The notes under the pieces: generated by a model | What the model saw: the letters and a program-made list of their open reading frames with translations, nothing else | What the model was told of the DNA's origin: nothing | The model's database searches: none | In this document: one piece after another, positions 11,522 through 62,759 of the stretch | Numbering within the stretch: position 1 is the stretch's first letter | How the letters are laid out: every line of letters begins with the position of its first letter | DNA from: an uncultured candidate division Zixibacteria bacterium | Lineage (GTDB): Bacteria; Zixibacteria; MSB-5A5; RBG-16-43-9 | Reading direction: 5' to 3' | Length of the DNA stretch: 64,000 nucleotides | Assembly: GCA_963713865.1 (NCBI GenBank) | Contig: OY970208.1 | Coordinates: 2,016,001-2,080,000 of the forward strand | Program-made: the position numbers and the translations under genes

Positions 11522-11592
11522 GTAGGGCAACCCTTTAGGAGTGCTTTTTTTCTGCAAGGCTGAAGTCTCAAGACCTTGAGGCCTTGCCCTAC
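11522..11592. repeat. REP doublet with a nested hairpin
   Basis: GTAGGGCAACCCTTTAGGAGTGC ... GCAAGGCTGAAG[TCTCAAGACCTTGAG]GCCTTGCCCTAC. Confidence 0.7.
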
Positions 11593-11600
11593 CTATATTT

Positions 11601-12284
11601 CTATAAATTATAACTCTCGCCGATCTTGAGTATCTTCACTTTGGTCTTAGAGTCTTTTAGTTTATTGGCAAATATTTCCGGGTTTTGTTTAATGATATCA
11701 AAAGTATCAAAATGCATTGGAATAACCACTTTCGGATTTAGAAACTCTGTTGCCTTTACTGCATCCTCAATCCCCATTGTGAAATTATCCCCAATCGGAA
11801 TCAATGCTAAATCTAACTTATTCATCTCCCCTATCAATTTCATATCCGAAAAAAGTCCGGTATCCCCGGAATGATACACAATCTTTCCTGCAAAATTAAC
11901 CACGAATCCGCAAGGGTTGCCGGTATAGGTAATATCCTCATCTATTACTGCTGAGCCATGGTGAGCTATGGTCAGTTTAACCCGGCCGAAATTAAAATCC
12001 CGGCTTCCCCCGATATGCATAGGATGAACGTTAGCACCTTTTTTCTGGCAGTACATTGCCAGCTCAAACGGAGCAATAACCAAAGCATTATTCTTTTTAG
12101 CAATAGCTAATGCATCTCCTAAATGGTCACCGTGCCCGTGCGATAAAAGTATCGCTTCAACTTTGATCTCTTCTGGGCTTATTTTTGCTAAAGGATTTCC
12201 AGAAATAAAAGGATCAAAAATAATCTTATGCTCCTCATCCTCTAAAGTAAAACAAGAGTGCCCTAAATAAGTTAATTTGACCAT
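11601..12284 (-). CDS. UPF0173 metal-dependent hydrolase (metallo-beta-lactamase fold)
   Basis: LGHSCF, DPF, SHGHGDHLGD, HSGDT, IPMHF; SD GGAGGAG before ATG 12284. Confidence 0.9.
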   Translation of the reverse strand: MVKLTYLGHSCFTLEDEEHKIIFDPFISGNPLAKISPEEIKVEAILLSHGHGDHLGDALAIAKKNNALVIAPFELAMYCQKKGANVHPMHIGGSRDFNFGRVKLTIAHHGSAVIDEDITYTGNPCGFVVNFAGKIVYHSGDTGLFSDMKLIGEMNKLDLALIPIGDNFTMGIEDAVKATEFLNPKVVIPMHFDTFDIIKQNPEIFANKLKDSKTKVKILKIGESYNL

Positions 12285-12378
12285 AACTCCTCCATTTTCA
12301 TTCAAAGGTTTTATTTCCCTTCAATTCAATTTAAAAACTGTCAAGTCTTTGTCAAGAAAAAAGCCAGTTTAAGAGAAC

Positions 12379-12450
12379 GTAGGGACAGAATCCGCCTGAG
12401 GTGGATTCTGTCCCTACAAAATTCCCGTCGGGCATAAAACCCGACGCTAC
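12379..12450. repeat. Two REPs; the first carries a TCCGCCTGAGGTGGA mini-hairpin in its loop
   Basis: GTAGGGACAGAA[TCCGCCTGAGGTGGA]TTCTGTCCCTAC, compared with GTAGGGACAGAA[CATTG]TTCTGTCCCTGC at 851. CGTCGGGCATAAAACCCGACGCTAC matches 1093. Confidence 0.8.
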
Positions 12451-12478
12451 TTTCTTTTCCCTATCTACTGTATGCTGT

Positions 12479-15418
12479 TTACTGTCTACTTTTCAGTTTT
12501 CTCAATCTTTCCTTAGCATCTGCAATTTCAGGTATCCCCGGGTCAGCATTCTTCCATATATCCAGAAACTCCTCATATTTCTCAATCGCCTTTTTGTTCC
12601 AGCCAGATTTCTCATAAGCCAAGCCTAAAAGATAATAAGCTTTTACTGCCCTGTAAGACCACACTCTGTCATCGTCATATCTTGAGAGTGCCTTTTCTAA
12701 TTCAGATACTGCCTCGTCAAGTCTGCCTCTTTTCAAGTAAATTTCCGCCAGATGAGAACGGAGATCAAAAGATGGAGTTGGTGAGTCCTTATACGCCCTT
12801 TCTAAATAGCTCAATGCCATGGTGGTATCTCCTTTGACTAACTCTATGTCGCTCAATGTCCACCAGTAAGAAGACATTAGCTTTGGATTCTTTTCCTCAA
12901 TATCCTTTTTCAAAGCTTTTGCTAATTCTTCAGCTTCAGCAATTTTTCCACTCTTAGTGAGAAGAAAAGCGTAACCATCCCTCCCGTACACGGGATCATT
13001 AGGTTTGGCTTTCTTGTATATTTCCATGCCCATTTCCATTTCCTTTGATGCTAAATCCATCTTTTTCTGCCTTTCATAGAGAAGAAATGCCTTATCGAAA
13101 TGTTTATAAGCATTCATGTCCCCGTCAAACTGTTCCATTCTGTCTGCTGCAATGCCATCGTCTAAAACCTTGAGGGCATCTTCGAACTTCCCCTGGTAAG
13201 AAGGAATCAATTCTAAATATACCCTTCCCATTGACCTCAAACGCTTCTCGCTGTTAGAACAAAGTGCCTGAAAACAGCTTTCAGCTTTAGTATAATCTTT
13301 CTTGAAAACATACATATCCCCCAGCATGTACTGAGACGTAAAGAAGTCGGGTTTTATCTCTAATGCTTTCTTGTAAGATTCTATCGCTTGGTCGAGCTTA
13401 CCATTCCAGGCAAATAACTCAGCTCTTGAATCGTAGGGATTTGGTTCATCCGGGGCTAATTCTATATATTTGTTTATAGCCCAGATAGATTTGTCAAAAT
13501 CTCCCATTTCATTGTAGGCATAGGCTAGAATGTTGTAAGCTAGTTTATAGAGAGGGTCTATCTGGATGGCTTTGCTGAGATAATAAACTGCTTCTTTGAA
13601 CTCGTGGAGATTATTATTATAAATTTGTCCTAATACATAAAATGCGTCTTTTTCATCAGGGTAACTTTCAACTATTTTTTTTAGTCCGTTTATTGCTTGA
13701 GAATAATCACCTGTTATATAGGCTCCAAAACCTTTAATATAAAGTTTTTCCTTCTGGGTTATCTTATCTGTGTATTTCGCAGCTTTGGTAATGAACTCTC
13801 TTGCTGCCCTATCATCACCTGCATATCGATTAATTACTGCCAGCCAATAATATGCCATAGCAAAGGTAGAATCAAACTCTAGAGCTTTCTTGAGACTTTT
13901 CTCTGCCTCTGCAAAGTAAAGTTTGTAACCGTAATCAACGCCTTCGAGAAAGTAACGATATGCTTCTTGCGAATGGGTCGTAACCTTAGCTACAGACGGT
14001 TCCTTCTCCTGCTGGGCTGAGACAGGAAGAGTAAAACCTTTTTTGATTTCAACGGTTAGCCTATCAACTAAAGAGAAGACATCTTGCTCCTTTTCTCCCG
14101 TGATTCGTTGAGATGCCTTTATTTCACCAGTTCCGACATCGACTAACTGGGTTGTTATTTCGATTCTTGGCTTAACTTGGAGTATACTCCCCAGAAGCAT
14201 CCATTTAACCCCGGCTTTTGTGGCAACCTGGGATGCCATATTCTTATCTATCCTCTTTTCTCCCTCTCTTCCCAAAAGCTTGAGAATATCGTATAATCTC
14301 TGGCTGGATACTACCTTGAGATATTGCGACTCGGATAAACCAGTAATTAACAGATTAGTAACAATTTCACCAAGCTTTTGCTTGTCCTCCGGATCAGCCA
14401 GATTATCAAAATACATTACTGCTAAGGAGTTCTCTTTAGCTACTGCACCTTTTTCCGGAGCTACCTCAAATTTGAAAGGTTTAAGAATCAAGAAAAGTAA
14501 AATCAGGATGAAAACCACTGAGGCAGGAATAACAATCGGCAAAAGTTTCTTCTTAGGCTTAGGAGTAATCACTTCTTTTGGAATTTGACCGGTTTTCATG
14601 TATTCCAAATTTTTCTTTTCGTGCCTTAAATCTGCAAGTAAATCATCTATATGCTGGTATCTTTCCTCTTTATCTTTGATTAATGCTTTGAAGACGATCC
14701 GCTCTAATTCAGAGGAAACCTGATTATTGTATCTGGCTACAGGCTGAGGCTCTTCGTTGATTATCGAGTAAACAATAGCGGCCTGATGTTCTCCTCCAAA
14801 AGGTAAATTTTTGGTCAAAAGCTCATACAATACTACACCAAAAGAGAAGATATCGCTTCTTGAATCGACTTCCTCACCTTGAGCCTGCTCAGGTGACATA
14901 TAAGCTAAAGTCCCTAAGGTTGAGCGTGTCTTGGTCAGCTTGGTTGCTCCTTTCAGCTTTGCCAGTCCAAAATCCATTATCTTAACCTGACCTCGAGGAG
15001 TAAGCATTATGTTATCCGACTTGATATCCCGGTGCACAATCCCCTTCTCATGAGCCATAGCTAACCCTTCACATATCTGTATCCCGATATCCAGAACCTT
15101 TCTTATGGAGAGAGTTTCTTTCTCAATTACCTGCTTCAAAGTCCTGCCCTCACAGTATTCCATAACTATAAACATCTGCCCTTCAAATTCATCGATCTCG
15201 TAAATGGTAGTGATGTTAGGATGATTTAAAGCTGAAGCGGCTTTGGCTTCGTGGATAAACCTTTCCTTCTCAACAGCATCAGCGGTCAGATGTTGGGGTA
15301 AAAACTTCAAAGCGACCAGTCGATCCAGTTTGGTGTCTTGGGTTTTATAAACTATTCCCATTCCACCTTCCCCTAACTTTTCCAGAATTCTATAATGTGA
15401 GATCGTCCGTCCAATCAT
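12479..15418 (-). CDS. Ser/Thr protein kinase-TM-TolB/FlgO-like-TPR protein (K1)
   Basis: GEGGMG, ALK, HRDIKSDN, DFG, SPEQ; TM LPIVIPASVVFILILLFLIL; SLAVMYFDN domain; many TPRs. Confidence 0.92.
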   Translation of the reverse strand: MIGRTISHYRILEKLGEGGMGIVYKTQDTKLDRLVALKFLPQHLTADAVEKERFIHEAKAASALNHPNITTIYEIDEFEGQMFIVMEYCEGRTLKQVIEKETLSIRKVLDIGIQICEGLAMAHEKGIVHRDIKSDNIMLTPRGQVKIMDFGLAKLKGATKLTKTRSTLGTLAYMSPEQAQGEEVDSRSDIFSFGVVLYELLTKNLPFGGEHQAAIVYSIINEEPQPVARYNNQVSSELERIVFKALIKDKEERYQHIDDLLADLRHEKKNLEYMKTGQIPKEVITPKPKKKLLPIVIPASVVFILILLFLILKPFKFEVAPEKGAVAKENSLAVMYFDNLADPEDKQKLGEIVTNLLITGLSESQYLKVVSSQRLYDILKLLGREGEKRIDKNMASQVATKAGVKWMLLGSILQVKPRIEITTQLVDVGTGEIKASQRITGEKEQDVFSLVDRLTVEIKKGFTLPVSAQQEKEPSVAKVTTHSQEAYRYFLEGVDYGYKLYFAEAEKSLKKALEFDSTFAMAYYWLAVINRYAGDDRAAREFITKAAKYTDKITQKEKLYIKGFGAYITGDYSQAINGLKKIVESYPDEKDAFYVLGQIYNNNLHEFKEAVYYLSKAIQIDPLYKLAYNILAYAYNEMGDFDKSIWAINKYIELAPDEPNPYDSRAELFAWNGKLDQAIESYKKALEIKPDFFTSQYMLGDMYVFKKDYTKAESCFQALCSNSEKRLRSMGRVYLELIPSYQGKFEDALKVLDDGIAADRMEQFDGDMNAYKHFDKAFLLYERQKKMDLASKEMEMGMEIYKKAKPNDPVYGRDGYAFLLTKSGKIAEAEELAKALKKDIEEKNPKLMSSYWWTLSDIELVKGDTTMALSYLERAYKDSPTPSFDLRSHLAEIYLKRGRLDEAVSELEKALSRYDDDRVWSYRAVKAYYLLGLAYEKSGWNKKAIEKYEEFLDIWKNADPGIPEIADAKERLRKLKSRQ

Positions 15419-15567
15419 AGATCACACCTCCCGCTTTCGCTTCGCTTCAGCGGGATCCTCAAATTCGCAACCACTCGTTGAAAAAAGACTCGTGGGCGAA
15501 TTTGGGACATCCCACCCTCACCCAGCTTTTCTAAAATCTTGTAATGAGATATTGTTTTTCCAATCAT
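15415..15567 (-). pseudogene. 5'-only kinase copy (MIGKTISHYKILEKLGEGGM) interrupted by a 79-nt double-hairpin insert; 50-codon leader ORF whose stop overlaps the K1 ATG
   Basis: Reverse complement of 15508-15567 encodes the first 20 kinase residues. Insert at 15429-15507. GGT GTG ATC TAT (GVIY) then runs into the K1 ATG. Confidence 0.8.
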
Positions 15568-15611
15568 GATATTATTGTTTCATTTGTTCATTGTTCCATT
15601 GATTCAATCCC

Positions 15612-18188
15612 TTATCCTTTCGGCTTCAAAAGCTCCTTAAACGGCGGGTAATCCCACAACGATTCAAAGTCAACATCTGTATGGAGATCGATACTATAGG
15701 AGCGTCCTTGCAAAAAGCTCTCCTTCAGAAGGGCTATCGCCTGATCCTTGTCCCCCAGAATTGCTGCAATACATGCACGGTTATAAGTATACCCACCAAA
15801 AAGATATGGCTTCTTCAGGTTTTTGAGCCATTCAGAGACTCTCAGCGCTTTTTCTTTATCCCCTTGCCGAGCTGCTATAAGACCAAGCCACCCTTGATAA
15901 TCAATGTTGTCAGGCGAATCCTTGGCAAGTTCCTCGAAAATGCTCTTTGCCTCCTCCCATCGCCGAGCATCATACAGCGTAAGGGCATAGGCGTTGCGAA
16001 GGAGGGAATCCATCTCTTCAGCCGGCCTGCTTTTATACCATTGAACTGACTGGTCAAAAATCGTCATGGCAGCGTCTGCATACCCGTGAGCGCGCAATTC
16101 CTCTCCAGCACCTCTCATGGTACCTCCGGGAGTACCCGTGGCAATCCCGGGTTTGGTAAGGGTCAGACTTTCTTCAATAAGTTTTTTGACCTCCTCGATC
16201 TTCCCCAGGGCAGCAAGTGCCCGGATTTCGTAGTTCAAGGCACTCAGGGATGTCGGGAATCTTTTGCGAGCCTGTTTTGCGATTTCGAGTTCCTTTTTGT
16301 GCTCCCCCAGAAGGTGGTATGAGGCAGTGAAGAAACCCCAATAGAAGAGCCAGACTTGTTCCTGGTCAGCCATCTTGAACGCCTCAACGGCTTCTTTGGG
16401 GCGATTTACCAGAAATGCGTCCAAGCCCCACTCATAAGCATAGAAAGGTCCAGGCGCGATCTTGGCTGCTTCTCGCACAGCATTCAAGCATTTCATCCTA
16501 TCACCTGAAACCCAACCGCTTTCCTCGTCCAACCCCAATTGCTGAAGAGGAGTGAGTTGAGCACGGCGCAGATTAAGAAATCGCACCAGGGAATCTGCCT
16601 GTGCCAATTGCCCGAGGTTTATGTATGCAGCACACGCGTCGGTCAACGGAAAAAAGAACGATGTGTCTATAGTGTAAGCCCGCTTGAAGTATTCGAGTGC
16701 TCCCTGATAGTCGAACTGTTTTGAAAAGAGGTCCAATCCCTGGACGTACTGTTGGTATGCATCGTACTTAGGAGGCTTTGATACCTGCGTAGCCCATCCT
16801 TCCAGCCGTTTATCCAGCACAAGGGCAAGGGCGCCCAGCACCCGCTGGCGCACAGATTCAACTCCGTCCATGGTTTTTCTGGCTTCAGAGGTTACCGGTT
16901 CAATCGCCGTAAGAAGCTTTTCATTAGCATCCATTACCTTCGCTTGAAACTCGATAGTATCACCTAACTTGTAATAGGAACCAATCACAATCATGCTTGC
17001 ACCAGTTGCCTTGGCAATTGAGCGGACACTCTTGAGTTTTTCAAGTTCAGGCACTTTTTCTGGCGGAACAACTTCAGCTAAACCTGTCTGCAGAAGACTC
17101 TGGGTAGTCCAATCTGCAATCATCCGTCCAAGAGAATTAAGCGACGGGTCTCCGGTTTGGTTCTGGAACGGCACGACAACCACCCGCTTGGCAACCTGTT
17201 TTGAGACTTTAAATGGCTGCAGGAAAAAAATCACAACAACTGACCCGATAACCAAAACCGCTAATCCAACCAGCCATATCAGGTTTTTTCGGAAAAAGCT
17301 CGGTTGAGAAATGATTTTTGGCTCTGTCGGCAACGGTTGACTCACAATTGCTTCCGGCACACGGTGCACGCGTGAAGTATCTTTCTTCAGCCTGCGCAGC
17401 TCGATGACCACGTCCGCCATCGATTGGTATCTATCGTCCGGAGTCTTCTCCAGCAAACGATTGAGAATGTGAATTAGGTCTGAGGATGTATCCGGCAGAT
17501 ATTTCTGAATCGGTTCAGGGTCCTCATTCACAATCGAATACATCATCGCCGCCTCGTGCTCTCCCTTAAAGGGCAATTGTCCGGTGAGCATCTCGTAAAG
17601 GACAATGCCAAAGGAGAAAATATCAGACCTGGCATCTATCTCACCTCCCTGGATCTGTTCAGGTGCCATATAGGCAAGGGTCCCAACTGTGCTGGAGGTT
17701 TTCGTAAGTTTAAGAGAACCTTTTAGCTTTGCCAGGCCGAAATCCATCACCTTGACCTGGTTCTTGGAGTTGATCATTATATTATCAGATTTAATATCCC
17801 GATGGACTATTCCCTGACTGTGTGCCTCCTTTAACGCCTCCCCAATCTGGATGGCATAGGTTATTGCTTCGTTCACTGAAAGAGCTTTGCTCTCAAATTT
17901 CTTTCTTAAAGTCACACCGTCCACATATTCCATAACGATGAACTGCTGTCCTTTTTCCTCCTGAATATCATGGATTACACAGACGTTAGGATGATTTAAA
18001 GCTGAGGCTGATTTCGCCTCCTGTAAAAAGCGGGCTTTTTCAGCTTCGCTGGCTACGAGTTGAGGCGGGAGAAACTTCAGGGCTAAAAGCCGGTCAAGCT
18101 TAATATCCTGGGCTTTATAAACCACCCCCATCCCACCTTCACCCAGCTTCTCCAGGATTTTGTAATGTGAGATAGTTTTACCGATCAT
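15612..18188 (-). CDS. Ser/Thr protein kinase-TM-TolB-like-TPR protein (K2)
   Basis: Intact kinase motifs (HRDIKSDN, DFG, APEQ); TM LIWLVGLAVLVIGSVVVIFFL; VVVVPFQNQTGD domain; TPRs. Confidence 0.92.
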   Translation of the reverse strand: MIGKTISHYKILEKLGEGGMGVVYKAQDIKLDRLLALKFLPPQLVASEAEKARFLQEAKSASALNHPNVCVIHDIQEEKGQQFIVMEYVDGVTLRKKFESKALSVNEAITYAIQIGEALKEAHSQGIVHRDIKSDNIMINSKNQVKVMDFGLAKLKGSLKLTKTSSTVGTLAYMAPEQIQGGEIDARSDIFSFGIVLYEMLTGQLPFKGEHEAAMMYSIVNEDPEPIQKYLPDTSSDLIHILNRLLEKTPDDRYQSMADVVIELRRLKKDTSRVHRVPEAIVSQPLPTEPKIISQPSFFRKNLIWLVGLAVLVIGSVVVIFFLQPFKVSKQVAKRVVVVPFQNQTGDPSLNSLGRMIADWTTQSLLQTGLAEVVPPEKVPELEKLKSVRSIAKATGASMIVIGSYYKLGDTIEFQAKVMDANEKLLTAIEPVTSEARKTMDGVESVRQRVLGALALVLDKRLEGWATQVSKPPKYDAYQQYVQGLDLFSKQFDYQGALEYFKRAYTIDTSFFFPLTDACAAYINLGQLAQADSLVRFLNLRRAQLTPLQQLGLDEESGWVSGDRMKCLNAVREAAKIAPGPFYAYEWGLDAFLVNRPKEAVEAFKMADQEQVWLFYWGFFTASYHLLGEHKKELEIAKQARKRFPTSLSALNYEIRALAALGKIEEVKKLIEESLTLTKPGIATGTPGGTMRGAGEELRAHGYADAAMTIFDQSVQWYKSRPAEEMDSLLRNAYALTLYDARRWEEAKSIFEELAKDSPDNIDYQGWLGLIAARQGDKEKALRVSEWLKNLKKPYLFGGYTYNRACIAAILGDKDQAIALLKESFLQGRSYSIDLHTDVDFESLWDYPPFKELLKPKG

Positions 18189-18193
18189 CTTTT

Positions 18194-20788
18194 TTATATC
18201 TTTCGATTAATCAATTCTTCAAACGCTGGATAACCAGATAGATTCTCGAACGACGGCTCCAATTTAATATAAGCAGGTGTCATAAAATTGTTCTTCACCA
18301 AGAATTCGAGCATACGCACTGCCTCTTCTTTTTGTCCTGTAGCCGAATAAACGTAACTCAGGCTCCAAACCGCTCCAGACCACTCCACAGTTAGAAGGGA
18401 ATTCCCTAAACTTTTCTTCACTCTCTCTGCCTGCTCCAGGGCTTTTTTGGATTCTCCTTTTAATGAATAGGCTAAGGCTATTCTTAACCGACTATAATAT
18501 TCATTGGGAAGACCTTCAAATTCTTTGATTAAAGGTAGATTGAACTGAATGCAGGAATCCAAGTATATTTCCGCCTGTTTTTTATTTCCTCTCCTAAGCT
18601 CTGAGTAACTCAATTCTACAAACCATTCGCCAGCTGGGTTTTGTCGGCGTAATTCATTTGAATAATAAAAAACGCTGTCGGCCTCGCCTGACACCATAAA
18701 AATCCAATTCAAGGTCCCTAAAGAGGAGGTGCGCTGTGGGTCGATATTCAGAGATTTATGAGCCATTCTTTTTGCTTCTTCTAATTCACCCCAGACCAGG
18801 TGGCAACCACTCATGGCATCCCATATTGATGCATCGGTAGACTGAATCTCCAATCCTTTGTTAAAATATTCCTCCACCTTTTCTTTCTTCCCCCAGGCTG
18901 AGTACAAGCTTATAAACTTAGAGAATAAGGTAGCTTGGGTTGGCTTTACCTCTAACGCTCTCATCAAAGCACTCTCAGCTTTTGGATATTGACCAATGCT
19001 ATACCACCAGTATCCCAAAGTCCCCCAGCCTTCTCCATAATTAGGATTGGCTTTGACCGCTTCTTCTGCCTCTTGTATGCCCTTTTCGGTTTTCCCCTCG
19101 ACCATGTATAGCCTGGAGAGAGAGCGATGAGCCTCGGCCAAATCTGGGTCGAGAGCCAATGCTTTTAAGCTGGCTTTTTCAGCTTTTTCCAGCCAGGACT
19201 TCTTGGGGTCAACAGAAAACATCACATAGCTCGAATAGCAATCCGACAATCCAGCATAAGCTAAAGCAAAATTAGAATCAGCTTCCAATGCTTTTTCAAA
19301 CATCCTGGTTGACAGTTCCAGGCCTTCTTTAGTTGTACTTCCTCCTCCGAAATAATATTCCCGTCCTTGCAGATAGTAGTTGTAAGCTTGAACATTCAGG
19401 GTCGGTTTTTTTTCAATCCTTTCTACTTCAACTGGAGCAAGGGCAACTTTTAGTGCCTGGGCAACTGACTTAGCTACATCTGCCTGAATGGCAAATAGAT
19501 CCTCCATCTGTCTATCGTAGCTAGCTGCCCAAACGTGGAATCCATCACTGGCTTTAATCAGCTGACAAGTAATTCTGACCTTATCTCTGTATTTTTGGAC
19601 TGAACCTTCCATTACATACTTAACTCTTAACTTATCAGCTATCTCCTTAAGATTAATTGGTTTATTTTTGAATTGTTCAATGTCACTTCGGGAAGCAATC
19701 AGTAAGCCAGCGATTTGGGATAGCTGGGTGATAATATCTTCAGTCATTCCAGACGCAAAATAGTCATCTTCTTTATTTTCAGAGAGATTCCGCAAATACA
19801 GAACTGCTATGGAAGGTTTGCCAGCAGTAACTGGTTCTTTTTGTTTGAGAAATACTAAGTAAACTATAATAAGAATTAAAATCGCCATTAATCCTGCCAT
19901 CAATGGAAAAGCTCTCTTTTTGACTGGCTTGGGAGAATCAGTGGGTTTAGGTGTTACTCCTGTTTTGACATAATCCAAACTTTTCTTTTCCCTCCTCAAA
20001 TCTGCTAACAATTCATCAGCATGTTGATACCTTTCTTCTTTATCCTTTGCCAGTGCCTTGAAAACCATATCTTCTAACTTGGCGGAAACCTGATTGTTAA
20101 AACGGGCTACTGGCTGAGGTTCTTCATTAATTACCGAGTAAACAATAGCAGCTTGATGCTCTCCTCCAAAAGGAAGCTTCCCGGTCAGAAGCTCATATAA
20201 AACAACCCCAAATGAGAAGATATCACTTCTCTGGTCAACTTCCTCACCTTGAGCTTGCTCTGGTGACATATAGGCAAGAGTCCCTAAAGTTGAACGAGTC
20301 TTGGTCAGTTTGGTTGCTCCTTTCAGCTTTGCCAAACCGAAATCCATTATCTTCACCTGCCCTCGAGGAGTAAGCATTATATTGTCAGATTTGATATCTC
20401 GGTGCACAATCCCCTTCTCGTGAGCTAAAGCTAAACCTTCACATATCTGAATCCCGATATCCAAAACCTTTTTTATAGAAATGGTCTCTTTTTCAATTAT
20501 CTGCTTCAAAGTCTTACCCTCGCAATATTCCATCACTATAAACATCTGCCCTTCGAATTCATCGATCTCATAAATGGTGGTGATGTTCGTGTGATTTAAA
20601 GCTGAAGCTGCTTTGGCTTCGTGGATAAACCTTTCCTTCTCCTCAGACTCAGAGGTCAGATGCGGAGGTAAGAACTTTAAAGCCACCAGACGGTCTAATT
20701 TAGTGTCCTGGGCTTTATAGACCACACCCATTCCACCCTCACCCAGCTTCTCGACGATTTTATAATGAGAAATTATTTTACCGATCAT
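18194..20788 (-). CDS. Ser/Thr protein kinase-TM-TolB-like-TPR protein (K3)
   Basis: Kinase motifs; TM; PSIAVLYLRNLS...YFASGMTEDII; TPRs. Confidence 0.92.
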   Translation of the reverse strand: MIGKIISHYKIVEKLGEGGMGVVYKAQDTKLDRLVALKFLPPHLTSESEEKERFIHEAKAASALNHTNITTIYEIDEFEGQMFIVMEYCEGKTLKQIIEKETISIKKVLDIGIQICEGLALAHEKGIVHRDIKSDNIMLTPRGQVKIMDFGLAKLKGATKLTKTRSTLGTLAYMSPEQAQGEEVDQRSDIFSFGVVLYELLTGKLPFGGEHQAAIVYSVINEEPQPVARFNNQVSAKLEDMVFKALAKDKEERYQHADELLADLRREKKSLDYVKTGVTPKPTDSPKPVKKRAFPLMAGLMAILILIIVYLVFLKQKEPVTAGKPSIAVLYLRNLSENKEDDYFASGMTEDIITQLSQIAGLLIASRSDIEQFKNKPINLKEIADKLRVKYVMEGSVQKYRDKVRITCQLIKASDGFHVWAASYDRQMEDLFAIQADVAKSVAQALKVALAPVEVERIEKKPTLNVQAYNYYLQGREYYFGGGSTTKEGLELSTRMFEKALEADSNFALAYAGLSDCYSSYVMFSVDPKKSWLEKAEKASLKALALDPDLAEAHRSLSRLYMVEGKTEKGIQEAEEAVKANPNYGEGWGTLGYWWYSIGQYPKAESALMRALEVKPTQATLFSKFISLYSAWGKKEKVEEYFNKGLEIQSTDASIWDAMSGCHLVWGELEEAKRMAHKSLNIDPQRTSSLGTLNWIFMVSGEADSVFYYSNELRRQNPAGEWFVELSYSELRRGNKKQAEIYLDSCIQFNLPLIKEFEGLPNEYYSRLRIALAYSLKGESKKALEQAERVKKSLGNSLLTVEWSGAVWSLSYVYSATGQKEEAVRMLEFLVKNNFMTPAYIKLEPSFENLSGYPAFEELINRKI

Positions 20789-20796
20789 TCCTGAAC

Positions 20797-23406
20797 CTAT
20801 TTACTCCTTGCCAAAAGTTTCTGAAAGCGGGGTTGGTTACGTAAAGGAGCCCAGGTTGGGTCGATACGAAGATATGGAATTGAGATCTCCGAAGGGATCG
20901 ACAAAAGATACTCAAGCTGGTCTATGGCAGAGTCGTAATCACTAACCATAACATATATCTGTGCCAAATTCTGGACATAGCCAGGACCGTCGAGTGCATC
21001 CTTAGGTACAGGGAGTAATTCCACCCCTTTTTTCCCTTCCCGGATTGCCTCTTCTTTGCGTCCAAGCCCGGCATAAGCGATGCCGAGATAACTGTGGAAG
21101 AACGCCTCGCCTGGCCTTGACTGTATCCTGTTTTCGAGGATGATTCTAGCAGAGTCACTATAGACCAGTTTCAGCTGTTGTCGATTCAGCAAACCATATA
21201 TTTTAGCTTTAGTCAAAAAGTAAGATATTGTATCATTACGACCACCCGCATCCACGTATGCGCAGACCCCAGGTAGCCGACCTAATGCTGTCTGATAGTC
21301 TCCATCGAGAACATCCAACCATACCAAATCAGGCACAAGTAGCGACACATCTGCCTTTCCGGTCGCCTCATGGAAAACTTTCCTCGCTTTTTTTGTGTCA
21401 CCCTCCGAGATTTGATATAGCCAGGCCTTGCGACTATAAGCTACTGGCCAATCAGGAGCCAGAGAGATGACTCTGTCCAAGTAGTACTCTGCCTCGGCAT
21501 ATTTGCGCATAAGTCGGTAGGTAGTGGCAACCTCATCTGCCTTATCGTAGGCTCGCGGGTCAAGCTCTGCTGCCTTCTTGAGGTTAGTGACCGCCTGCTC
21601 GAATTTCCCCTGACGCCTTTGAACAAAACTGATAGCCGCAAGGAGGTCGCTGTTATTCGGCTGACCTTTCTGGGCAATTGCAAACTGCTCCAGGGCACGG
21701 TCATAGTCCCAGCTTCCCCAGTAGTAATAATAGCCCAGGGCCAAGTGCGCTTCAGGCAGATCCGGCTTCAGCTTCAGGGCTTTGTCCACAGCTTCTTTGG
21801 CTTTATTAAGGCGCTCGTCAGTATTGTCCCAATAAAACCAATACAGCCAAGAATGAGCCCATGAAAGTCTGGCATAGGCTAACGCAAAAGCCGGGTCTAA
21901 CTTCACCACTTTCTCATACATCTCTATAGCTATGCGGACATCTTTCTCCCCCTTACCATAAATAAAATAATCCTCACCGCGCAGATAGTATTCGTAAGCC
22001 TCAAGGTTCTCGGTCGGCTTGGCTGCTATGTACCGTTGCTCAGCTTCGAGAAGCGTGATGTTCAATGCAGAAGCTACCTTCTCTGCTATGTCAGCTTGAA
22101 GGGCAAAAACCTGCTCCAGAACACGGTCATATGTCTCGGCCCAAACATGGGTACCGTCTTTGACTCTGATTAGCTGGGGATTTATTCTTACCCGATTGTT
22201 AACTTCAGACTTATCCCATAGAATTGTCCCTTCTAAGACATACTGGACCCCCAATTCTCTGCCTATTTGCTGAACAGTTTTCTTGGTATCTTTGTATTGG
22301 AGAACACTGGTGCGGGAGATAACACCCAAACCGCTGACTTTGGCCAACTGGGTCGTTATCTCGTCGGTGATGCCATCAGCAAAATACTCCTGCTCTGGCG
22401 CTCCTAAATTTTCAAAGGGTAAAACCGCAAGCATCTTTATTCCGGATTCCGGCTCCTTTTTACTCAATAGGGTAAAGTATCCTACAATCAAAATAAGAAC
22501 CGCCAGTCCAGCCAAAACTAAGGGTAACATTTTCTTCTTGAGCGGCTTTTGTGTCTCTACGGGCTGAGCCAGCGTGGCTGTCTTCACATATTCCAAACTC
22601 TTCTTCTCGTGCCTTAAATCTGCCAACAATTCATCAGCATGTTGATACCTTTCCTCTCTGTCTTTTGCCAGTGCTTTGAAAACTATCCGCTCCAGTTCTG
22701 CTGAAACTTTGTTGTTATATCTGGCTACTTGCTGTGGCTGTTCATTGATTATCGAGAAAATAATAGCGGCCTGATGTTCACCCCCAAAGGGCAACTTTCC
22801 AGTTAAAAGCTCATATAAGACAACGCCAAAGGAAAAAATATCGCTTCTTGAATCTACTTCCTCGCCCTGAGCTTGCTCTGGTGACATATAAGCTAAAGTG
22901 CCCAAGGTTGAGCGAGTTTTGGTCAGCTTGGTTGCTCCCTTTAGCTTTGCCAATCCGAAATCCATTATCTTCACCTGACCCCGAGGAGTGAGCATTATGT
23001 TATCCGATTTGATATCCCTGTGCACAATCCCTTTCTCATGAGCCATAGCCAAACCTTCACATACCTGTATCCCAATATCCAGAACCTTCTTTATAGAGAG
23101 AGCTTCTTTCTCAATCACTTGCTTTAAAGTCCTGCCCTCACAATATTCCATCACTATAAACATCTGACCATCAAATTCATCAATCTCGTGAATAGTAGTG
23201 ATATTGGTATGACTTAAAGCTGATGCGGCTTTGGCTTCGTGAATGAATCTTTCCTTCTCAACAGCATCGGCGGTCAGATGTTGGGGTAGAAACTTCAAAG
23301 CCACTATTCTATCCAGCTTAGTGTCCTGGGCTTTGTAAACTATTCCCATACCACCTTCACCCAGCTTTTCGAGAATCTTATAATGCGAAATGGTTTTGCC
23401 AATCAT
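20797..23406 (-). CDS. Ser/Thr protein kinase-TM-TolB-like-TPR protein (K4)
   Basis: Kinase motifs; TM; LAVLPFENLG...YFADGITDEI; TPRs; C-terminal DPTWAPLR. Confidence 0.92.
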   Translation of the reverse strand: MIGKTISHYKILEKLGEGGMGIVYKAQDTKLDRIVALKFLPQHLTADAVEKERFIHEAKAASALSHTNITTIHEIDEFDGQMFIVMEYCEGRTLKQVIEKEALSIKKVLDIGIQVCEGLAMAHEKGIVHRDIKSDNIMLTPRGQVKIMDFGLAKLKGATKLTKTRSTLGTLAYMSPEQAQGEEVDSRSDIFSFGVVLYELLTGKLPFGGEHQAAIIFSIINEQPQQVARYNNKVSAELERIVFKALAKDREERYQHADELLADLRHEKKSLEYVKTATLAQPVETQKPLKKKMLPLVLAGLAVLILIVGYFTLLSKKEPESGIKMLAVLPFENLGAPEQEYFADGITDEITTQLAKVSGLGVISRTSVLQYKDTKKTVQQIGRELGVQYVLEGTILWDKSEVNNRVRINPQLIRVKDGTHVWAETYDRVLEQVFALQADIAEKVASALNITLLEAEQRYIAAKPTENLEAYEYYLRGEDYFIYGKGEKDVRIAIEMYEKVVKLDPAFALAYARLSWAHSWLYWFYWDNTDERLNKAKEAVDKALKLKPDLPEAHLALGYYYYWGSWDYDRALEQFAIAQKGQPNNSDLLAAISFVQRRQGKFEQAVTNLKKAAELDPRAYDKADEVATTYRLMRKYAEAEYYLDRVISLAPDWPVAYSRKAWLYQISEGDTKKARKVFHEATGKADVSLLVPDLVWLDVLDGDYQTALGRLPGVCAYVDAGGRNDTISYFLTKAKIYGLLNRQQLKLVYSDSARIILENRIQSRPGEAFFHSYLGIAYAGLGRKEEAIREGKKGVELLPVPKDALDGPGYVQNLAQIYVMVSDYDSAIDQLEYLLSIPSEISIPYLRIDPTWAPLRNQPRFQKLLARSK

Positions 23407-25728
23407 TCTTCCAATCCTATCTTTTTAATTAGTGCAACCACTCGTGGGTCTTTGCTATAGTCTTCCCATCCCGGGAAAGTTCGTATGAATAGCAGCATAA
23501 GAGACCTATATTCAGAAGCTTTTTCCAAACATTCGATAACCTTATCATGCTCACCTAAAGCAAGATATACTACGGCAAAGAGATAAGGATCTACATACCG
23601 ATGTTTTGATTCCTCGATTAAATCGCTAAGAATTTTGCGTGCCTCATTTTCTTTACCAGAACGCTGCATAAGCATAAGCCAGCCAACTAAGAGAAATACT
23701 GTTCTTTAAGGCAATTGATTTTTGATATTGATTTATCGCCTCGTTATACATTTTTTTACACAAATAACAATTACCAAGCATATCATACCCGAATGCTAAA
23801 GTGCTGTCGATTTTTAATATTTCATTGGCTAAGGTTATCGCACTATCACACTGTCCGGAATAGAGAAAAACATATACCATACTCGTGCTTATGTCAAAAG
23901 AAAGCGGGTCAAGCTCTCTGGCTTTCTTTGCTTTCCTTATTGCTTCATCAAACCGTTTCATTGCTGACAGGTAGTAAGCATACCAGGCATAAGCAGTTGC
24001 ATAATTTGGATTAAGCTCGATGGCTCGTTTGTAGTTTTCCTCAGCTCCCCTCCAATCCCATTCGTAACAAAATTTGACATCAGCCATAAGCACATACGCA
24101 TCCGCCAGCGTTTTGTCAAGGCTCAGTGCTTTCCTGGCTAATGAATCTACTTTCGGCCAGGCTTCCTTTGGTGGCATCGTAGCCAAAGCAAGATAATCAT
24201 ATCCTTTTGCCATACCGGTATAGGCTAAGGCATAGTCTGGGTCTTTCTGAATGGCCTCTTCAAAGTATTTGAATCCTTTTTCAACATCTGCGGGTGATAA
24301 TTTGTTGACGAAGTACATCCCTTTAAGATACAGCTCATGAGCTTCAGGATTGACTGTGCGGTAAGCTGCTAATTTTTGCTGTTCTTCAGGTGTTACAGTG
24401 ATTTTTATTTCACGTGCAATTGCCTGTGCAACTTCGCTCTGGAGTATCAGGATATCTTTAAATTTTCTGGTGAAATCACTTGCCCACAGGTGTTTCTCCG
24501 GTTTTGCCTTGATAAGTTGCGCCGTAATTCTGACATCGTCCTGCACTCGCTGAACCGACCCTTCTACAACCGCATCCACGTTTAAATCATGAGCTATCTC
24601 CGGCAACGATTTCTCTGTTTTCTTGAAATGCATGACCGAAGTCCGGGAGATAACCCGGAGTGCTTTGATTTTCGATAATTCCGAGATAAGCGCTTCAGTA
24701 ATTCCATCGGAGAAATACTCCTGCTCAGGATCAGCGGAGAGATTTTGGAAAGGCAGAACAGCTATTGAATTGATCGGCACTTCCCGTGAAGCGAAGAAAT
24801 AGAGTTTACTGAGGATAAGAATTGCGATTAGGATTGTAACACTGACATATACATAAATCGGTACCTTCATTAAACGCTTTGGTTTTCTCCTTTCTTGTAT
24901 TGGCGTCGTCGTTTCAAGTCTCTTCTTGAGATATTTAAAATCAGCCATCATCTCGTCAACATGCTGATAGCGTTCATCCTTCCCTTTTGACAATGCCTTA
25001 TCAATGATTTTTTGTAGTCCCTCTGGAACATTCGCTTTATACCTTGCCAGAGGTTCTGGGGTCTCATTTAAAATAGAATAGATTATCGCAGCTTCATGTT
25101 CCCCCTTGAAGGGAAGTTGTCCTGTAATCATCTCATACAACACCACTCCAAACGAGAAAATGTCTGAACGCTGGTCAACTTCCATCCCTTGAGCTTGCTC
25201 CGGGGACATATAGGCCAATGTGCCAACTGTAGAACCTGTCCTGGTTAGTTTGCTTACTCCTCGGAGCTTAGCCAAACCAAAATCCATGATCTTAACCTGA
25301 CCATCTTCTGTTAGCATGATGTTGTCAGATTTTATATCCCGATGGACTATCTCCTTCTTGTGGGCAGCATTTAGTCCCTCTGCTATCTGAATGGATATGT
25401 TCAAAATTTCTTCTATAGAAAAACTTCTCTGTTTAAGTAATTCTTTTATAGATCTACCTTCAATATAAGCCATGGAGATAAAGCATTCCCCTTCGACTTC
25501 ATCGATTTCATAAATGGTAGCTATATTGGGGTGGTCTAATGCAGATGCAGCTTTGGCTTCATGCTCAAATCTCATTTTGGCTTCACTATCGCACAAAAGA
25601 TGTTTTGACAAAAACTTTAGAGCTACTATCCGGTTCAACTTGGTGTCCTGGGCTTTATAAACTATTCCCATTCCACCTTCCCCTAACTTTTCCAGAATTC
25701 TATAATGTGAGATGTTTTTACCAATCAT
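23403..25728 (-). CDS. Ser/Thr protein kinase-TM-TolB-like-TPR protein (K5), +1 frameshift near 23664
   Basis: ORFs 23653..25728 and 23403..23675 join as AYA-RSGKENEARKIL when one base is removed. The C-terminus is homologous to the K6 end. Confidence 0.88.
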
Positions 25729-25731
25729 TGC

Positions 25732-25875
25732 TTATCCTTTATAGCCGCATGTATGAACCACATGGTTCATACCGCAGACTTTAGTCTGCGTCATTTTATC
25801 GCAAGCTGGATTCCTTCGAAATGGATCCGTAGGACTTGCGGTTACCTTATAATAAGATATCGTTTTACCAATCAT
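25732..25875 (-). pseudogene. 5'-only kinase copy (MIGKTISYYK) followed by REP doublet; 47-codon leader ORF ending just before the K5 start
   Basis: ATG ATT GGT AAA ACG ATA TCT TAT TAT AAG, then REP sequence, TAA GCA and the K5 ATG in the same frame. Confidence 0.7.
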
Positions 25876-25960
25876 GTTATTATTTATTCATTGTTTCATT
25901 TGTTCATTGATCCATTTTATCATTGAACCAATGAGTCAATCATTCAATGTTACAATCTTT

Positions 25961-42162: not shown

Positions 42163-42165
42163 TCT

Positions 42166-46438: not shown

Positions 46439-46445
46439 GAGATAC

Positions 46446-53134: not shown

Positions 53135-55025
53135 CCGCACTTCTCCCCTTGGACCTGATGATGATAGCATCGCCGGCTATAGCGTCAAAACGACAGATCT
53201 CATAACATGCTCTGCACTTTATACATTTGGATGGATCAAGGTTATGTGGCTCTGCCCTGGGTCCGGTAATGGCACCCGTGGGACATACGCTGACACAGCG
53301 TTGACATCCAGTACATTTACCCGGGATAACCCGGTATTCGATAAGCTCTCTGCAAACCGTAGCCGGACAGTACTTTTCCTTTATATGCTGGAGATATTCT
53401 GGTCTGAAATAACGGAGCGTAGTCATAACCGGATTCGGGGCAGTCTGTCCCAAGCCGCAGAGCGAGCCTTTTTTAACCGTTTCCCCCAGAGTCTGAAGTT
53501 TTAAAAGGTCATCTGTTTGCCCTTCCCCTTTGGTAATCCTTTCAAGGATTTCCACCATATGCCTGGATCCAACGCGACAGGGAGAACATTTGCCACAGGA
53601 TTCCTTCTGTGTAAAATCCAGAAAATAGCGGGCAATATCCACCACGCAGGTATCTTCATCCATCACGATCAGACCTCCAGAACCCATTATCGAGCCAGCC
53701 TCGGTCAGCGATTCATAATCCACTGTCGTGTCTAAAAATTCCTCTGAGAGACAACCGCCTGAAGGTCCGCCGGTTTGGACTGCTTTGAAAGGCTTCCTTG
53801 AACCGCCCCCTATATCAAAAATTATTTTTCTGAGTGTCATTCCCAATGGAACTTCGATCAAACCTGAGCGGCGGATCTTTCCGACCAGAGAAAATGTTTT
53901 CGTGCCGTAATTCCCCTGGGTGCCGTATTGCCTGTACCAGGAAGCACCGTTTCTCAAAATGTTGGGGAGAGTCCCGAGTGTCTCCACATTATTAATGATG
54001 GTGGGCATGCGAGTGAAGACCCGCGACTGCCGGGAAAGGAGGCCGTGGTCCGTGGCATGCCTCTTTTCCCTTCTATGGAAGCAATCAGAGCAGTCTCCTC
54101 ACCGCAGACAAAAGCCCCGGCCCCTTCTTTAATGGTGATGTCGAAATCAAACCCCGACATTCTGGATGTTCTTTCCCAGAAAGCCATATTCTCTCATCTG
54201 GGTTATGGCTTTCTTCAAGCGGGCAATGGCTAAAGGATATTCTGCCCTTATGTAGATATATCCCCGGGAAGCACCAATGGCATAAGCTGCGATAAGCATC
54301 CCTTCAAGGACTGAATGTGGATCCCCCTCTATCAGGGACCGGTTCATAAACGCTCCCGGATCTCCTTCGTCTGCATTGCAGATCATATACTTTGTTTTAG
54401 CGGAAGATTTTTTACAAATCTCCCATTTCTTATAAGTGGGAAACCCTGCTCCACCCCTCCCCCGCAATCCGGATTCTTTTACCTCTTCGATTACCTTGTC
54501 AGGTCCCTTGGTGAACGCATTCATAATCCCCAGGTATCCCTGGTTAGCTAAGTAATGGTCGATCTCCTCCGGGTCTATGAATCCGCAATTTCTGAGCACG
54601 ACTCTCACTTGAGGCTTAAGCATGGGAAGATCGAAAAAACCTGGAATCCCGTTTGTAAATTTACAGTTTTCATCTCCGAAATGCCCCACTGCCAGCTGTG
54701 CCTGAGGATCACCTTGGATTAAATAGGACCCGATTATCTTTTGAGCTTTTTCCGGATTGACATTAGCGTAACTTATCCGTGGACGATCTGGTAACTTTAT
54801 ATCCATAAGTGGTTCCAGATAACAGGGTCCAATACATCCCACCTGGACAATTTTTGCTTTCAACCGGTTTTCTTTCAGTGTCTTCTGAACCGAGCCCAGC
54901 ACTTCCATAGCCCCTGCCGCCCTGCCGCAGGAGGCGGTACCCAGATAAATAACCGGTATTTTACTGGATTCGAGCAAATTCCATTTCTTCTGGGCTTCTT
55001 TTCTTTTTATGTCGAAGCTATTCAT
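53127..55025 (-). CDS. nuoF: HydB/NuoF-type NADH-binding flavoprotein with N-terminal thioredoxin-like 2Fe-2S and C-terminal 2x[4Fe-4S]; three single-base insertions at ~54158, ~54049 and ~54010
   Basis: [48 protein letters not shown] are spread over ORFs 54147..55025, 53954..54187 and 53127..54008. Confidence 0.85.
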
Positions 55026-60896: not shown

Positions 60897-62069
60897 CTAA
60901 GCCTTCTCTTTTTGATAAATAGGCGACATAGCTCTCAATCTTGAAACTATCTCTGGCAGCACTTCGACCGCATAATCTATGTCATCTATAGTATTACTCC
61001 TTCCAAAACTAAACCTTAAAGAACTCTGGGCTAAATCCGGAGGCACTCCCATAGCAGAGAGAACATGAGATGGTTCCAAGGTACCTGAAGTGCAGGCAGA
61101 GCCTGAAGCAACTGCTATCCCCTTTAAATCCAGGCTCAAAATAATCGACTCGCCTTCTACTCCCTTAAAGGAAAGGTTTAAGGTATTCGGGATTCTAAGC
61201 TCAGGATGACCATTTAGATAAACATCCGGAATTTTTTCTGTTATCCTCTCAAAAAATCTCTCGGAAAGATTTTTCAATCTATTATCCTCTTTCTCCATAT
61301 CCCTGTTTGCGATCTCAAGTGCTTTAGCCAGTCCCACGATTCCAGGGACATTCTCAGTTCCCGCTCTTCTTGCCTTTTCGTGATGACCTCCATGTGCCAA
61401 GGGAGTTAACCTTACCCCTCTTCTTATGTAGATTGCTCCCACTCCTTTGGGACCATAAAATTTATGAGCGGATAGTGAAAGTAAATCCACACCCAATCTA
61501 TTTACATCGATCTTTATTTTACCTGTGGATTGAACTGCATCCGTATGAAAATAAACTCCATTTTCCCTGGCAATTTTAGAGAGCTCCGGGATAGGCTCAA
61601 TTGTGCCTACTTCATTATTAGCGTGCATTATGCTAACCAGTATTGTTTCTTTTCTGATATTCTTTTTCAACTCATTCGGGTCAACCAAACCGTATCTATC
61701 TACAGGCAGATACGTTACCTCAAACCCTTCTCTTTCTAAAAACTTACAACTCTCTAAAACCGCATGATGCTCTATCTTAGAAGTTACGATATGATTCCCT
61801 TTCTTTGCATTAGCCCAGGCAATCCCTTTAACCGCTAAATTATCCGATTCAGTCCCTCCACTGGTAAAATATATCTCTAAGGGGTCTGCATTTAATAACT
61901 TTGCTACCTTCTCTCTGGATTCTTCTAAAGCTACCTTAGCCTCTCTGCCAAAACTATGGATGCTGGAGGCATTTCCAAAACCTTCTTTATAAAAAGGAAG
62001 CATCGCCTCAAGCACTTCCGGATGAACCGGAGTGGTAGCGTTATGATCTAAATAGATTTTTCTATCCAT
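60897..62069 (-). CDS. iscS: Cysteine desulfurase IscS/NifS
   Basis: YLDHNATT, GNASS.H, SAHKFYGPKG, SGSACTS. Confidence 0.95.
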   Translation of the reverse strand: MDRKIYLDHNATTPVHPEVLEAMLPFYKEGFGNASSIHSFGREAKVALEESREKVAKLLNADPLEIYFTSGGTESDNLAVKGIAWANAKKGNHIVTSKIEHHAVLESCKFLEREGFEVTYLPVDRYGLVDPNELKKNIRKETILVSIMHANNEVGTIEPIPELSKIARENGVYFHTDAVQSTGKIKIDVNRLGVDLLSLSAHKFYGPKGVGAIYIRRGVRLTPLAHGGHHEKARRAGTENVPGIVGLAKALEIANRDMEKEDNRLKNLSERFFERITEKIPDVYLNGHPELRIPNTLNLSFKGVEGESIILSLDLKGIAVASGSACTSGTLEPSHVLSAMGVPPDLAQSSLRFSFGRSNTIDDIDYAVEVLPEIVSRLRAMSPIYQKEKA

Positions 62070-62512
62070 TTTTTCGAACTCCTTTTGAAATTAATATTTA
62101 TCTTTTCTTTTTTCAAGTCTTTTAAAGTAATGCTGGAAAGCATCTCGTCGATTTTGTCTTCAAGTCTTTTCCATAAAACTCTGGTTATGCAGGTGGAAGG
62201 ACCGGTACAGCTTTTCTCCCTCAAACTCGGGTTATCACAGTAGGAAATAGAAAAAGGTCCATCTAAGGCATTAATAACCTGGCTTACCGTGATTTTATCC
62301 TCATCTAAGGCTAAAATATACCCGCCCTTAGCTCCTCTCACACTTTCCACTATGCCTGCCTTTTTTAACTTATTGAAGATCTGCTCCAGATAATCAATAG
62401 ACATCTTCTGCCTTTTAGAGAGACTCCTCAAATTAACCGGATCTTCTCTCGTAAGGGTGGAGAGATCCAGAAGCGCCCTTAAACCATATCTCCCGCGGGT
62501 TGATATATTCAT
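62048..62512 (-). CDS. iscR: Rrf2 family regulator, IscR-like
   Basis: STRGRYGLRA, YLEQIF, SVRGAKGGY, three Cys; upstream of iscS-iscU. Confidence 0.88.
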   Translation of the reverse strand: MNISTRGRYGLRALLDLSTLTREDPVNLRSLSKRQKMSIDYLEQIFNKLKKAGIVESVRGAKGGYILALDEDKITVSQVINALDGPFSISYCDNPSLREKSCTGPSTCITRVLWKRLEDKIDEMLSSITLKDLKKEKININFKRSSKKWIEKSI

Positions 62513-62541
62513 AAGCTTCCTCTTAACCTATCATCTTTTTT

Positions 62542-62575
62542 AATATACGTAATTCCTACTAAATTTGTCAAGATT
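62542..62575 (-). promoter_or_regulatory. Sigma70 promoter overlapped by an IscR-type operator
   Basis: TTGACA-N18-TATATT; 25-nt imperfect palindrome AATCTTGACAAATTTAGTAGGAATT. Confidence 0.6.
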
Positions 62576-62643
62576 AATTTCAAAATATTTTACTCCCTTC
62601 TCAAGGAAAGGATTAGCGAGATGAAGAATATGTATTCGCGGCA

Positions 62644-62759
62644 TAAGGGCAGGTTGTCCCGCCAACGGCGGGATACCCCTACCTTATTTTTTATGTGATC
62701 GTCGGGTCCCCTGACCCGATTTGCCTTAGGCGAACCAGGTCAGTCCGCCTCAGGCGGAT
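62644..62759. repeat. REP cluster with nested mini-hairpins
   Basis: TAAGGGCAGGTT[GTCCCGCCAACGGCGGGAT]ACCCCTACCTTA; TCGGGTCCCCTGACCCGA; ATTTGCCTTAGGCGAAC; GTCCGCCTCAGGCGGAT. Confidence 0.75.

Follow-up and report, generated by a model that had tools for sequence, protein, structure and literature searches.

The 64-kb window analysed here (contig OY970208.1 of an uncultured Zixibacteria bacterium) has a G+C content of ~41% and carries most of its genes on the minus strand. These comprise lipid A and heptosyltransferase genes, type II secretion/type IV pilus genes, a Fe-hydrogenase-like/NuoEF cluster and six tandem Ser/Thr-kinase-TPR (tetratricopeptide repeat) paralogues; this gene content points to an anaerobic Gram-negative host. 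Between the genes lie ~6.6 kb of DNA crowded with palindromes that open with GTAG and close with CTAC. This intergenic DNA is a mosaic of hairpin modules of the repetitive extragenic palindrome (REP) type, and it contains all the solid copies of the structure that concerns us here: GC-rich hairpins with cores of 15-17 nt, which we call mini-hairpins, about nine of them in the 64 kb. An initial annotation had proposed that they form a second, ultra-short element that targets structures and rides on REPs.

The data from the source genome are this window, and the comparison set consists of loci from other genomes (designated by L-numbers). A collection scan with one genome per species, using the arms of the REP at 851 with a free loop of 3-33 nt, yielded at least 120 loci, and the flanking DNA of 80 of them was fetched for comparison. 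Because these loci were picked by the pattern of REP-A (our name for the 29-nt GTAG...CTAC palindrome at 851), REP-A counts are biased, and nested copies were left out of the association count given below. Among the fetched loci, the closest protein matches lie in a Zixibacteria metagenome-assembled genome (MAG), L032, with one protein at 64% identity.

The mini-hairpins fall into two types. Type 1 has TCCGCC/GGCGGA arms and a 3-nt loop (at 12391, 46218 and 62744), and type 2 has TCCCGC(C)/(G)GCGGGA arms (at 15429, 46343, 46389 and 62657). The unit at 46343 belongs to the tRNA fragment described further on; the others are as follows.

12391-12405: TCCGCC-type mini-hairpin with one G.T pair, standing in place of the 5-nt loop of REP-A
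46218-46232: free-standing mini-hairpin in the probable leader of a tRNA-Ser gene, sharing its exact 15-mer with 62744
62744-62758: mini-hairpin with the exact 15-mer, from mismatch search and folding
62720-62734: degenerate mini-hairpin, matching a copy in L064 at 12 of 15 positions, which still folds
15429-15455: TCCCGC/GCGGGA hairpin with a 15-nt loop, directly 5' of a kinase start codon
46389-46405: TCCCGC..GCGGGA unit within a 42-nt tRNA insert
62657-62673: TCCCGCC-type mini-hairpin, 2 nt upstream of a REP foot (CCCCTAC), weakly enclosed (fold z -2.35)
29169-29183: doubtful member with three mismatches, in a probable open reading frame (ORF) for a membrane protein, just after GTAGGGCA

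The units are real, and both types occur far above chance. A search with the 15-mer at up to three mismatches gave nine strand matches at five places, compared with a mean of 0.75 in 100 shuffles, none of which reached nine, and the pattern TCCCGC-N3-12-GCGGGA matched twice in the window when 0.00 matches were expected. The units at 46218 and 62744 are exactly the same 15-mer in unrelated flanks. A further match at 21746 (three mismatches, within an ORF) was counted as doubtful. The TCCGCC/GGCGGA hairpins and the one-pair-longer TCCCGCC/GGCGGGA variant are one family: homologous ~80-nt elements hold either of them in one and the same place, with the short version found in L032 and the long one in L064. 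Family members have loops of 3-7 nt, and the inserted unit measures ~21 nt; pairing holds the family together, as in the 62720 copy, which keeps its stem through paired changes. The sites that the initial annotation had assigned to the family at 12391, 15429, 46217, 46342, 46389, 62656 and 62743 stood, as did 62719 in degenerate form; 29168 is doubtful, and 11566 and 25808 hold unrelated sequences. A nested-hairpin scan that allowed bulges, run on the window and loci, returned 138 rows, mostly AT-rich or trivial, and was dropped as uninformative.

The strongest evidence for insertion comes from a broken tRNA gene copy that stands beside its intact counterpart.

46328-46438, plus strand: truncated duplicate of tRNA-Ser(GGA), covering gene nt 1-48 (48/48 identical), with two insertions, ending exactly after GTAG
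46343-46363, plus strand: 21-nt hairpin insertion in the D loop, from alignment with the intact gene
46386-46427, plus strand: 42-nt insertion in the anticodon loop, made of two related ~20-nt units in tandem
46446-46537, plus strand: intact tRNA-Ser(GGA), the 'empty' reference, 7 nt downstream of the fragment

Both inserts fold as TCCCGCC-type hairpins, and the tandem units of the 42-nt insert share 16 identities in a 23-column alignment. The fragment lacks gene nt 49-92 and ends at the GTAG that, in the gene, forms the foot of the variable-arm hairpin. This filled/empty comparison at one locus shows real insertions into hairpin loops. The D and anticodon loops of the tRNA-Ser(GGA) copy are filled, as had been claimed for tRNA loops at the outset; the interrupted copy is a truncated duplicate and not a working tRNA, and neither ARAGORN nor Rfam calls it. 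A perfect 48/48 backbone carrying three units implies that insertion was faster than point mutation. The intact gene cannot carry inserts of this kind, which makes the fragment a trap. A tRNA intron (group I or bulge-helix-bulge) was rejected because the interrupted copy is incomplete, with nt 49-92 missing, and a fold-back (self-templated) origin was rejected because the inserted arms are not complementary to the tRNA flanks.

A promoter-like site (46137-46165) upstream of the fragment suggests that the 46218 hairpin and the fragment lie within the tRNA-Ser leader. In the same region, a 12-nt word, CAAACTGTATTC, followed by GGAG (the first tRNA bases) has two copies, at 46233 and 46316, both of them just past a hairpin. 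This pair (46233-46327) suggests that the tRNA-Ser 5' end went through an earlier round of duplication, since decayed.

A parallel case was found in a Roizmanbacteria MAG (L030, 3079-3138, minus strand), where a copy of tRNA-Pro nt 7-30 (24/24 identical) starts exactly at GTAG and holds a 36-nt hairpin with a 12-bp stem in its D loop. The copy, 23 nt upstream of its gene, is ~330 nt away from a gene for a REP-associated tyrosine transposase (RAYT); a 3' half-copy lies downstream of the tRNA-Pro. No second copy of the 36-nt hairpin was found in the 13 kb of that locus. Interrupted partial copies accompany 2 of the 17 tRNA genes in the window and loci (2/9 of those that bear GTAG vs 0/8 of those that do not, a sample too small for meaning). 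Repeats of a tRNA 3' end in L056 were excluded as a different phenomenon, namely 184-nt tandem units that end in the tRNA 3' end. Two further filled loops lie in the window.

11554-11587: REP with GCAAGGC/GCCTTGC arms, whose loop (11561-11580) is a 20-nt hairpin-forming segment
25811-25833: 23-nt extra segment in the loop of a CGCAAG/CTTGCG hairpin upstream of a kinase paralogue, absent at the paralogous position 28196

The L064 copy of the first REP has a 3-nt loop, vs 20 nt in the window. By sequence, the fillings at 11561-11580 and 25811-25833 have no relation to the TCC(C)GCC family; thus, loop filling is more general than this family. The kinase genes carry a comparable duplication: three paralogues (15359-15567, 25701-25875 and 28168-28330) have, upstream of the true start, a remnant of their first 28-60 coding bases, and a hairpin-rich segment of 90-120 nt separates the two. 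This 5'-end duplication beside REP-like hairpins resembles the tRNA-Ser case.

Six palindromes in the window (851, 901, 994, 1055, 11522 and 12379) carry a GT[AG]G foot at the 5' end and CTAC at the other, and three copies of REP-A are central to what follows.

851-879: short REP-A, 29 nt, the 'empty' comparator in the alignment with 12379
1158-1186: second short REP-A, with a degenerate 5' foot
12379-12417: long REP-A, 39 nt, with GTAG...CTAC feet and an 18-bp stem (-27.1 kcal/mol, z -8.2)

The host palindromes, 28-29 nt long, are the large modules of the intergenic mosaic, and the mini-hairpins are its smallest. By sequence, the host palindromes are known 'double-foot' REPs of RAYT subclass 2.4 (group 4). 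The relevant passages of Quentin et al. 2018 (PMC6006769) equate TnpA(REP) subclass 2.4 with group 4 of Bertels and give it double-foot REPs (GT[AG]G ... C[TC]AC), in-frame REPs within the gene and a patchy distribution. The comparison loci show the same arrangement, with one in-frame GTAG...CTAC REP in each of the following RAYT (PF01797) genes, between the HuH and Tyr motifs.

L005, 5876-6454
L015, 9729-10274
L030, 3387-3776
L095, 67-531
L045, 10985-11515 and 12184-12744

In L005, L015, L030 and L095, the REP is REP-A itself, which is translated at this place as VGTEQCSVPT or VGTEHCSVPT; the initial annotation had named the association of GTAG-tagged REPs with RAYTs as known. The REP carried differs between RAYT clades. 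Among the best 120 of 2,947 homologues, 65 contain the REP-A peptide, most of the rest have either a variant of this peptide or one encoded by a different REP, four lack a recognisable REP peptide and none contains a long form of the REP-A peptide. While an in-gene REP is known for subclass 2.4 from the relevant passages of PMC6006769, the identity of sequence across phyla is striking: the 29-nt REP-A is letter-identical in MAGs labelled Omnitrophota, Zixibacteria, Latescibacteria, Ignavibacteria, several candidate phyla radiation (CPR) groups, Gammaproteobacteria, Anaerolineae and others. Further REP families from the window, among them those at 48176, 1093/12426 and 11522, are present again in Ignavibacteria and Zixibacteria loci. 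A search of a plasmid collection with long and short REP-A as queries gave no match.

The mini-hairpins also extend beyond the window. In a census of perfect hairpins over the window and 120 loci (1.22 Mb), the loop-proximal arms TCCGCC (8), CCCGCC (6) and TCCCGC (6) were the commonest GC-rich ones, the query REP and one array in L031 aside. Free TCCGCC hairpins were concentrated in the genomes that carry long REP-A: 5 of 7 lay within the 101 kb from these genomes (the window, L033 and L064), compared with 0.6 expected if evenly spread. The hairpin also occurs inside a composite palindromic element of ~80-90 nt (GTCATT..GAG / CTC..AATGAC), of which comparison of the loci revealed five copies and the window has none.

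L032, 5693-5784
L064, 6918-6995 and 11575-11656
L067, 4677-4756
L042, 8034-8121

In four of the five copies, a TCC(C)GCC hairpin is one of two inner hairpins, and the L042 copy has a different interior without it. The loop of the second hairpin ranges from 4 to 22 nt across copies, and some copies have a CCCTAC foot. These results show that, in several genomes, mini-hairpins are found on their own, within a REP and as parts of composite elements. To say that they ride on REPs was therefore too narrow, because they also stand beside REPs as peers in clusters and within composite elements. The proposal of a second, structure-targeting element is borne out to the extent that the same stems stand free, in a REP and in tRNA-fragment loops; the sites first grouped under it are not one family.

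We propose, with a probability of roughly 45%, that mini-hairpins act as modules which can be inserted or swapped and which come to rest in hairpin loops where the DNA is single-stranded, with an HUH enzyme (a RAYT) acting in trans as the most likely agent. A RAYT encoded elsewhere in the genome would supply HUH Y1 activity in trans, the enzyme would act on folded single strands, moving or swapping modules, and exposed hairpin loops would receive them. We infer all three parts of this proposal, namely the mobility of the units, loops as their target and a RAYT as the agent. A RAYT is the candidate mover because the host REPs belong to the RAYT system and because both tRNA fragments (tRNA-Ser in the window and tRNA-Pro in L030) break at GTAG, which the relevant part of PMC8266576 gives as the RAYT recognition tetranucleotide.

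Several results weigh against this proposal. We found no RAYT in the window by tblastn, in agreement with the initial annotation's statement that it lacks a transposase, and neither there nor in the loci is a RAYT tied to mini-hairpins. No mini-hairpin has GTAG or CTAC immediately at its foot, the sole near case being 62657, with CCCCTAC 2 nt off. The flanks of 35 hairpins share no target motif (CCAG, CTGG, CAGG and CCTG lie near 2-4 each). The junctions of the tRNA inserts show at most an ambiguous 1-2-nt repeat, and a model of cleavage between C and T, which part of PMC8266576 describes for RAYTs of groups 2 and 3, does not, on our reading, fit these junctions and was rejected. A search for donor copies of the 21-nt units (blastn-short, window and loci) returned chance matches, the best being 13 nt in a coding region with an E value of 0.025. 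The numbers are small, with about nine units in the window and two tRNA cases among 17. The L030 hairpin is AT-rich and unrelated to the window family; since this filling and those at 11561 and 25811 are unrelated, the common factor may be the loop and not an element. Finally, long REP-A is a poor witness. Compared with 851 and 1158, the copy at 12379 has the same arms and a 15-nt hairpin where CATTG or CACTG stands, so that the old loop is gone and was replaced, not split. Long forms are also rare, at 3 of 70 perfect double-foot REPs (of the 70, which belong to 16 stem families, 67 are 28-29 nt long). Because the long form is conserved elsewhere and its loop replaced, 12379 says little about local insertion.

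An alternative that we consider less likely is ordinary REP diversity, in which mini-hairpins are loop or inner-stem variants and cluster partners copied with their REP, with no independent movement. The 39-nt long REP-A has identical boundaries in the window and in three other MAGs, namely L033 (at 10001, Ignavibacteria), L064 (Ignavibacteria, twice, at 10001 and, with arm changes, at 3482) and L103 (Zixibacteria), which indicates a subfamily spreading as a unit. The initial annotation had read 12379 as a local insertion relative to an empty 851 copy, and this reading did not survive the comparison. Its broader claim that units sit in REP loops stands for 12379 versus 851/1158, as a replacement; the fillings at 11566 and 25808 are other sequences, and 62656 is weakly enclosed. 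The hairpin also behaves as a REP partner elsewhere: in L064 (14950-15230), it stands as a peer among six other REP-type hairpins in a cluster of seven, while L057 and L078 have it and REP-A as a fixed pair. Variable loops have precedent, too. The relevant sections of Di Nocera, De Gregorio and Rocco 2013 (PMC3733652) report that one REP family may have short or long self-complementary loops with GC-rich ends (up to 27 bp), that REPs can be nested in small palindromes of the CCGSSCC(n3,4)GGSSCGG type, and that a genome may hold several REP families, mostly 3' of genes. The possibility that the units match a described REP class with variable loops is thus realised in part. Ordinary REP diversity leaves unexplained the two clean insertions in a 48/48-identical tRNA fragment, as well as identical 15-mers with unrelated flanks.

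It is also conceivable, at a lower probability again, that there is no element, and that replication-fragile loops acquire new hairpins and adjacent partial duplications by template switching, slippage and filler synthesis. Consistent with this, the sequences that fill the loops at 11561-11580, 25811-25833 and in L030 have nothing in common, the 42-nt insert consists of one unit twice in tandem, and the junctions carry no transposase-like signature. Partial tandem REP duplications are common in RAYT linkers (e.g., P0007, P0017 and P0076), and the 5' ends of both tRNA and kinase genes are duplicated beside hairpin clusters. The inserts, however, are neither copies nor inverted copies of their flanks, a local donor was not found, and TCC(C)GCC stems recur across contexts and phyla.

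Least probable of all is that selection keeps the units as RNA or protein-binding structures (for example to stabilise transcripts, as weak terminators or in the leader of the tRNA precursor), so that their recurrence reflects function and not mobility: stems are kept by G.T pairs and paired changes, units lie 3' of genes or in the tRNA-Ser leader below the promoter-like site, and 46218 is marginally terminator-like on the minus strand, but that single site is within shuffle expectation (1 vs mean 0.7), a search for intrinsic terminators (hairpin plus T run) found 0 sites in 62450-62850 and no T run at 62657 or 62744, and function would account neither for units placed in the loops of a dead tRNA fragment nor for stems shared between unrelated genomes and contexts.

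If the units are insertable modules, as we prefer, a broader reading can be considered, although we regard it as doubtful: an active single-strand DNA system, probably of group 4 RAYTs, would cut and join at any GTAG-footed hairpin, including the arms of tRNA genes. It would leave two footprints, partial duplications of tRNA genes delimited by GTAG and ~21-nt hairpin modules loaded into exposed loops. Were it true, no mobile DNA units smaller than mini-hairpins would be known outside cyanobacteria, and they would spread between phyla along with RAYT genes whose coding sequence holds a REP of their own.

Mini-hairpins fail as members of several known classes, namely REPs (by GTAG), terminators, tRNA introns and miniature inverted-repeat transposable elements (MITEs). 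MITEs and REPINs (REP doublets that form hairpins) were rejected because the units are single hairpins of 15-21 nt with at most an ambiguous 1-2-nt junction repeat. Insertion sequences are reported to target REP palindromes, in the work of Tobes and Pareja from 2006 and in work on IS1397; unlike mini-hairpins, these are full elements of about a thousand bases with their own transposase. Elhai et al. reportedly described, in 2008, small dispersed repeats (SDRs) with modules of 21-27 nt, which are said to nest in one another and to keep their hairpins by paired changes. No enzyme is known for SDRs. Of the systems considered, mini-hairpins work most like these SDRs of Nostocaceae. Like SDRs, they are very small units inserted with precision, as the clean 21- and 42-nt inserts compared with the intact tRNA gene indicate. 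They also resemble SDRs in being nested in REP-A and in the 80-nt composites and in showing paired differences (TCCGCC/TCCCGCC and the 62720 copy), in a small sample. Differences from SDRs are that the window, with its Fe-hydrogenase-like/NuoEF set and LPS genes, is not cyanobacterial, that a hairpin loop, apparently, and not a fixed octamer is the target here, and that mini-hairpin cores are GC-rich and, at 15-17 nt, shorter; the likeness was drawn from descriptions. Later papers, in the portions bearing on this, limit the reported range of SDRs to Nostocaceae, and one of them places the insertion point of SDR5 between the 3rd and 4th nucleotide of HIP1.

The GTAG REPs described in those sections of PMC3733652 resemble the present case in their short and long loop variants, their nesting with small GC-rich palindromes and the coexistence of families. 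The long loop is part of the REP in that account, unlike here, where the hairpin also stands by itself, forms part of other elements and is inserted in a tRNA fragment; for T. roseum, that account gives nesting the other way round, with the REP within the small palindrome. In the passages of PMC6006769 concerned, subclass 2.4 REPtrons are, like the host palindromes of the window, double-footed and patchy across phyla, and no hairpins in REP or tRNA loops are described. Unlike those REPtrons, mini-hairpins lack a GTAG foot, and the window has no RAYT. A limited literature search turned up no account of tRNA-gene fragments with hairpins inserted in their loops.

According to the relevant part of PMC8266576, the way in which REPs and other tiny repeats spread has yet to be settled. 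A dead tRNA fragment with hairpin inserts caught in both loops, beside its intact copy, is a natural trap in which the site of insertion, the size of the unit and its polarity can be read to the single base. Should the process be enzymatic, tRNA arms and 21-nt units would become concrete substrates for a group 4 RAYT, and the idea of very small mobile elements would reach beyond Nostocaceae. If it is not, the fragment would be a record of hairpin loops growing by mutation, relevant to intergenic structure in uncultivated phyla.

Several other features of the loci deserve mention. An array in L031 (15754-16300 and beyond), with repeats ~67 nt apart and an 8-bp GC-rich hairpin (64 copies by arm), looks like a CRISPR-type or other tandem array in an unrelated MAG. 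In the window, the tRNA-Ser(GGA) gene lies in 1.7 kb (45099-46788) that has no ORF of at least 100 aa, the block 46001-48000 has a G+C content of 31.8%, and the ORF that follows (46789-48081) has no Pfam match. Three genes have broken reading frames: the NuoF-like gene at 53127-55025 has two frameshifts, and the PmbA/TldD-like gene at 2319-3669 and the kinase paralogue at 23407-25728 have one each. Either these genes are pseudogenes or the assembly contains small indel errors; apparent split genes were rejected as insertion sites because the breaks are frameshifts. The six tandem Ser/Thr kinase-TPR paralogues span 12479-28195, with a DNA identity of 60-86% over 300-nt blocks, and upstream of two of them lie runs of imperfect 7-9-nt tandem repeats (CATTGTT-like), at 25874-25950 and 15574-15600.

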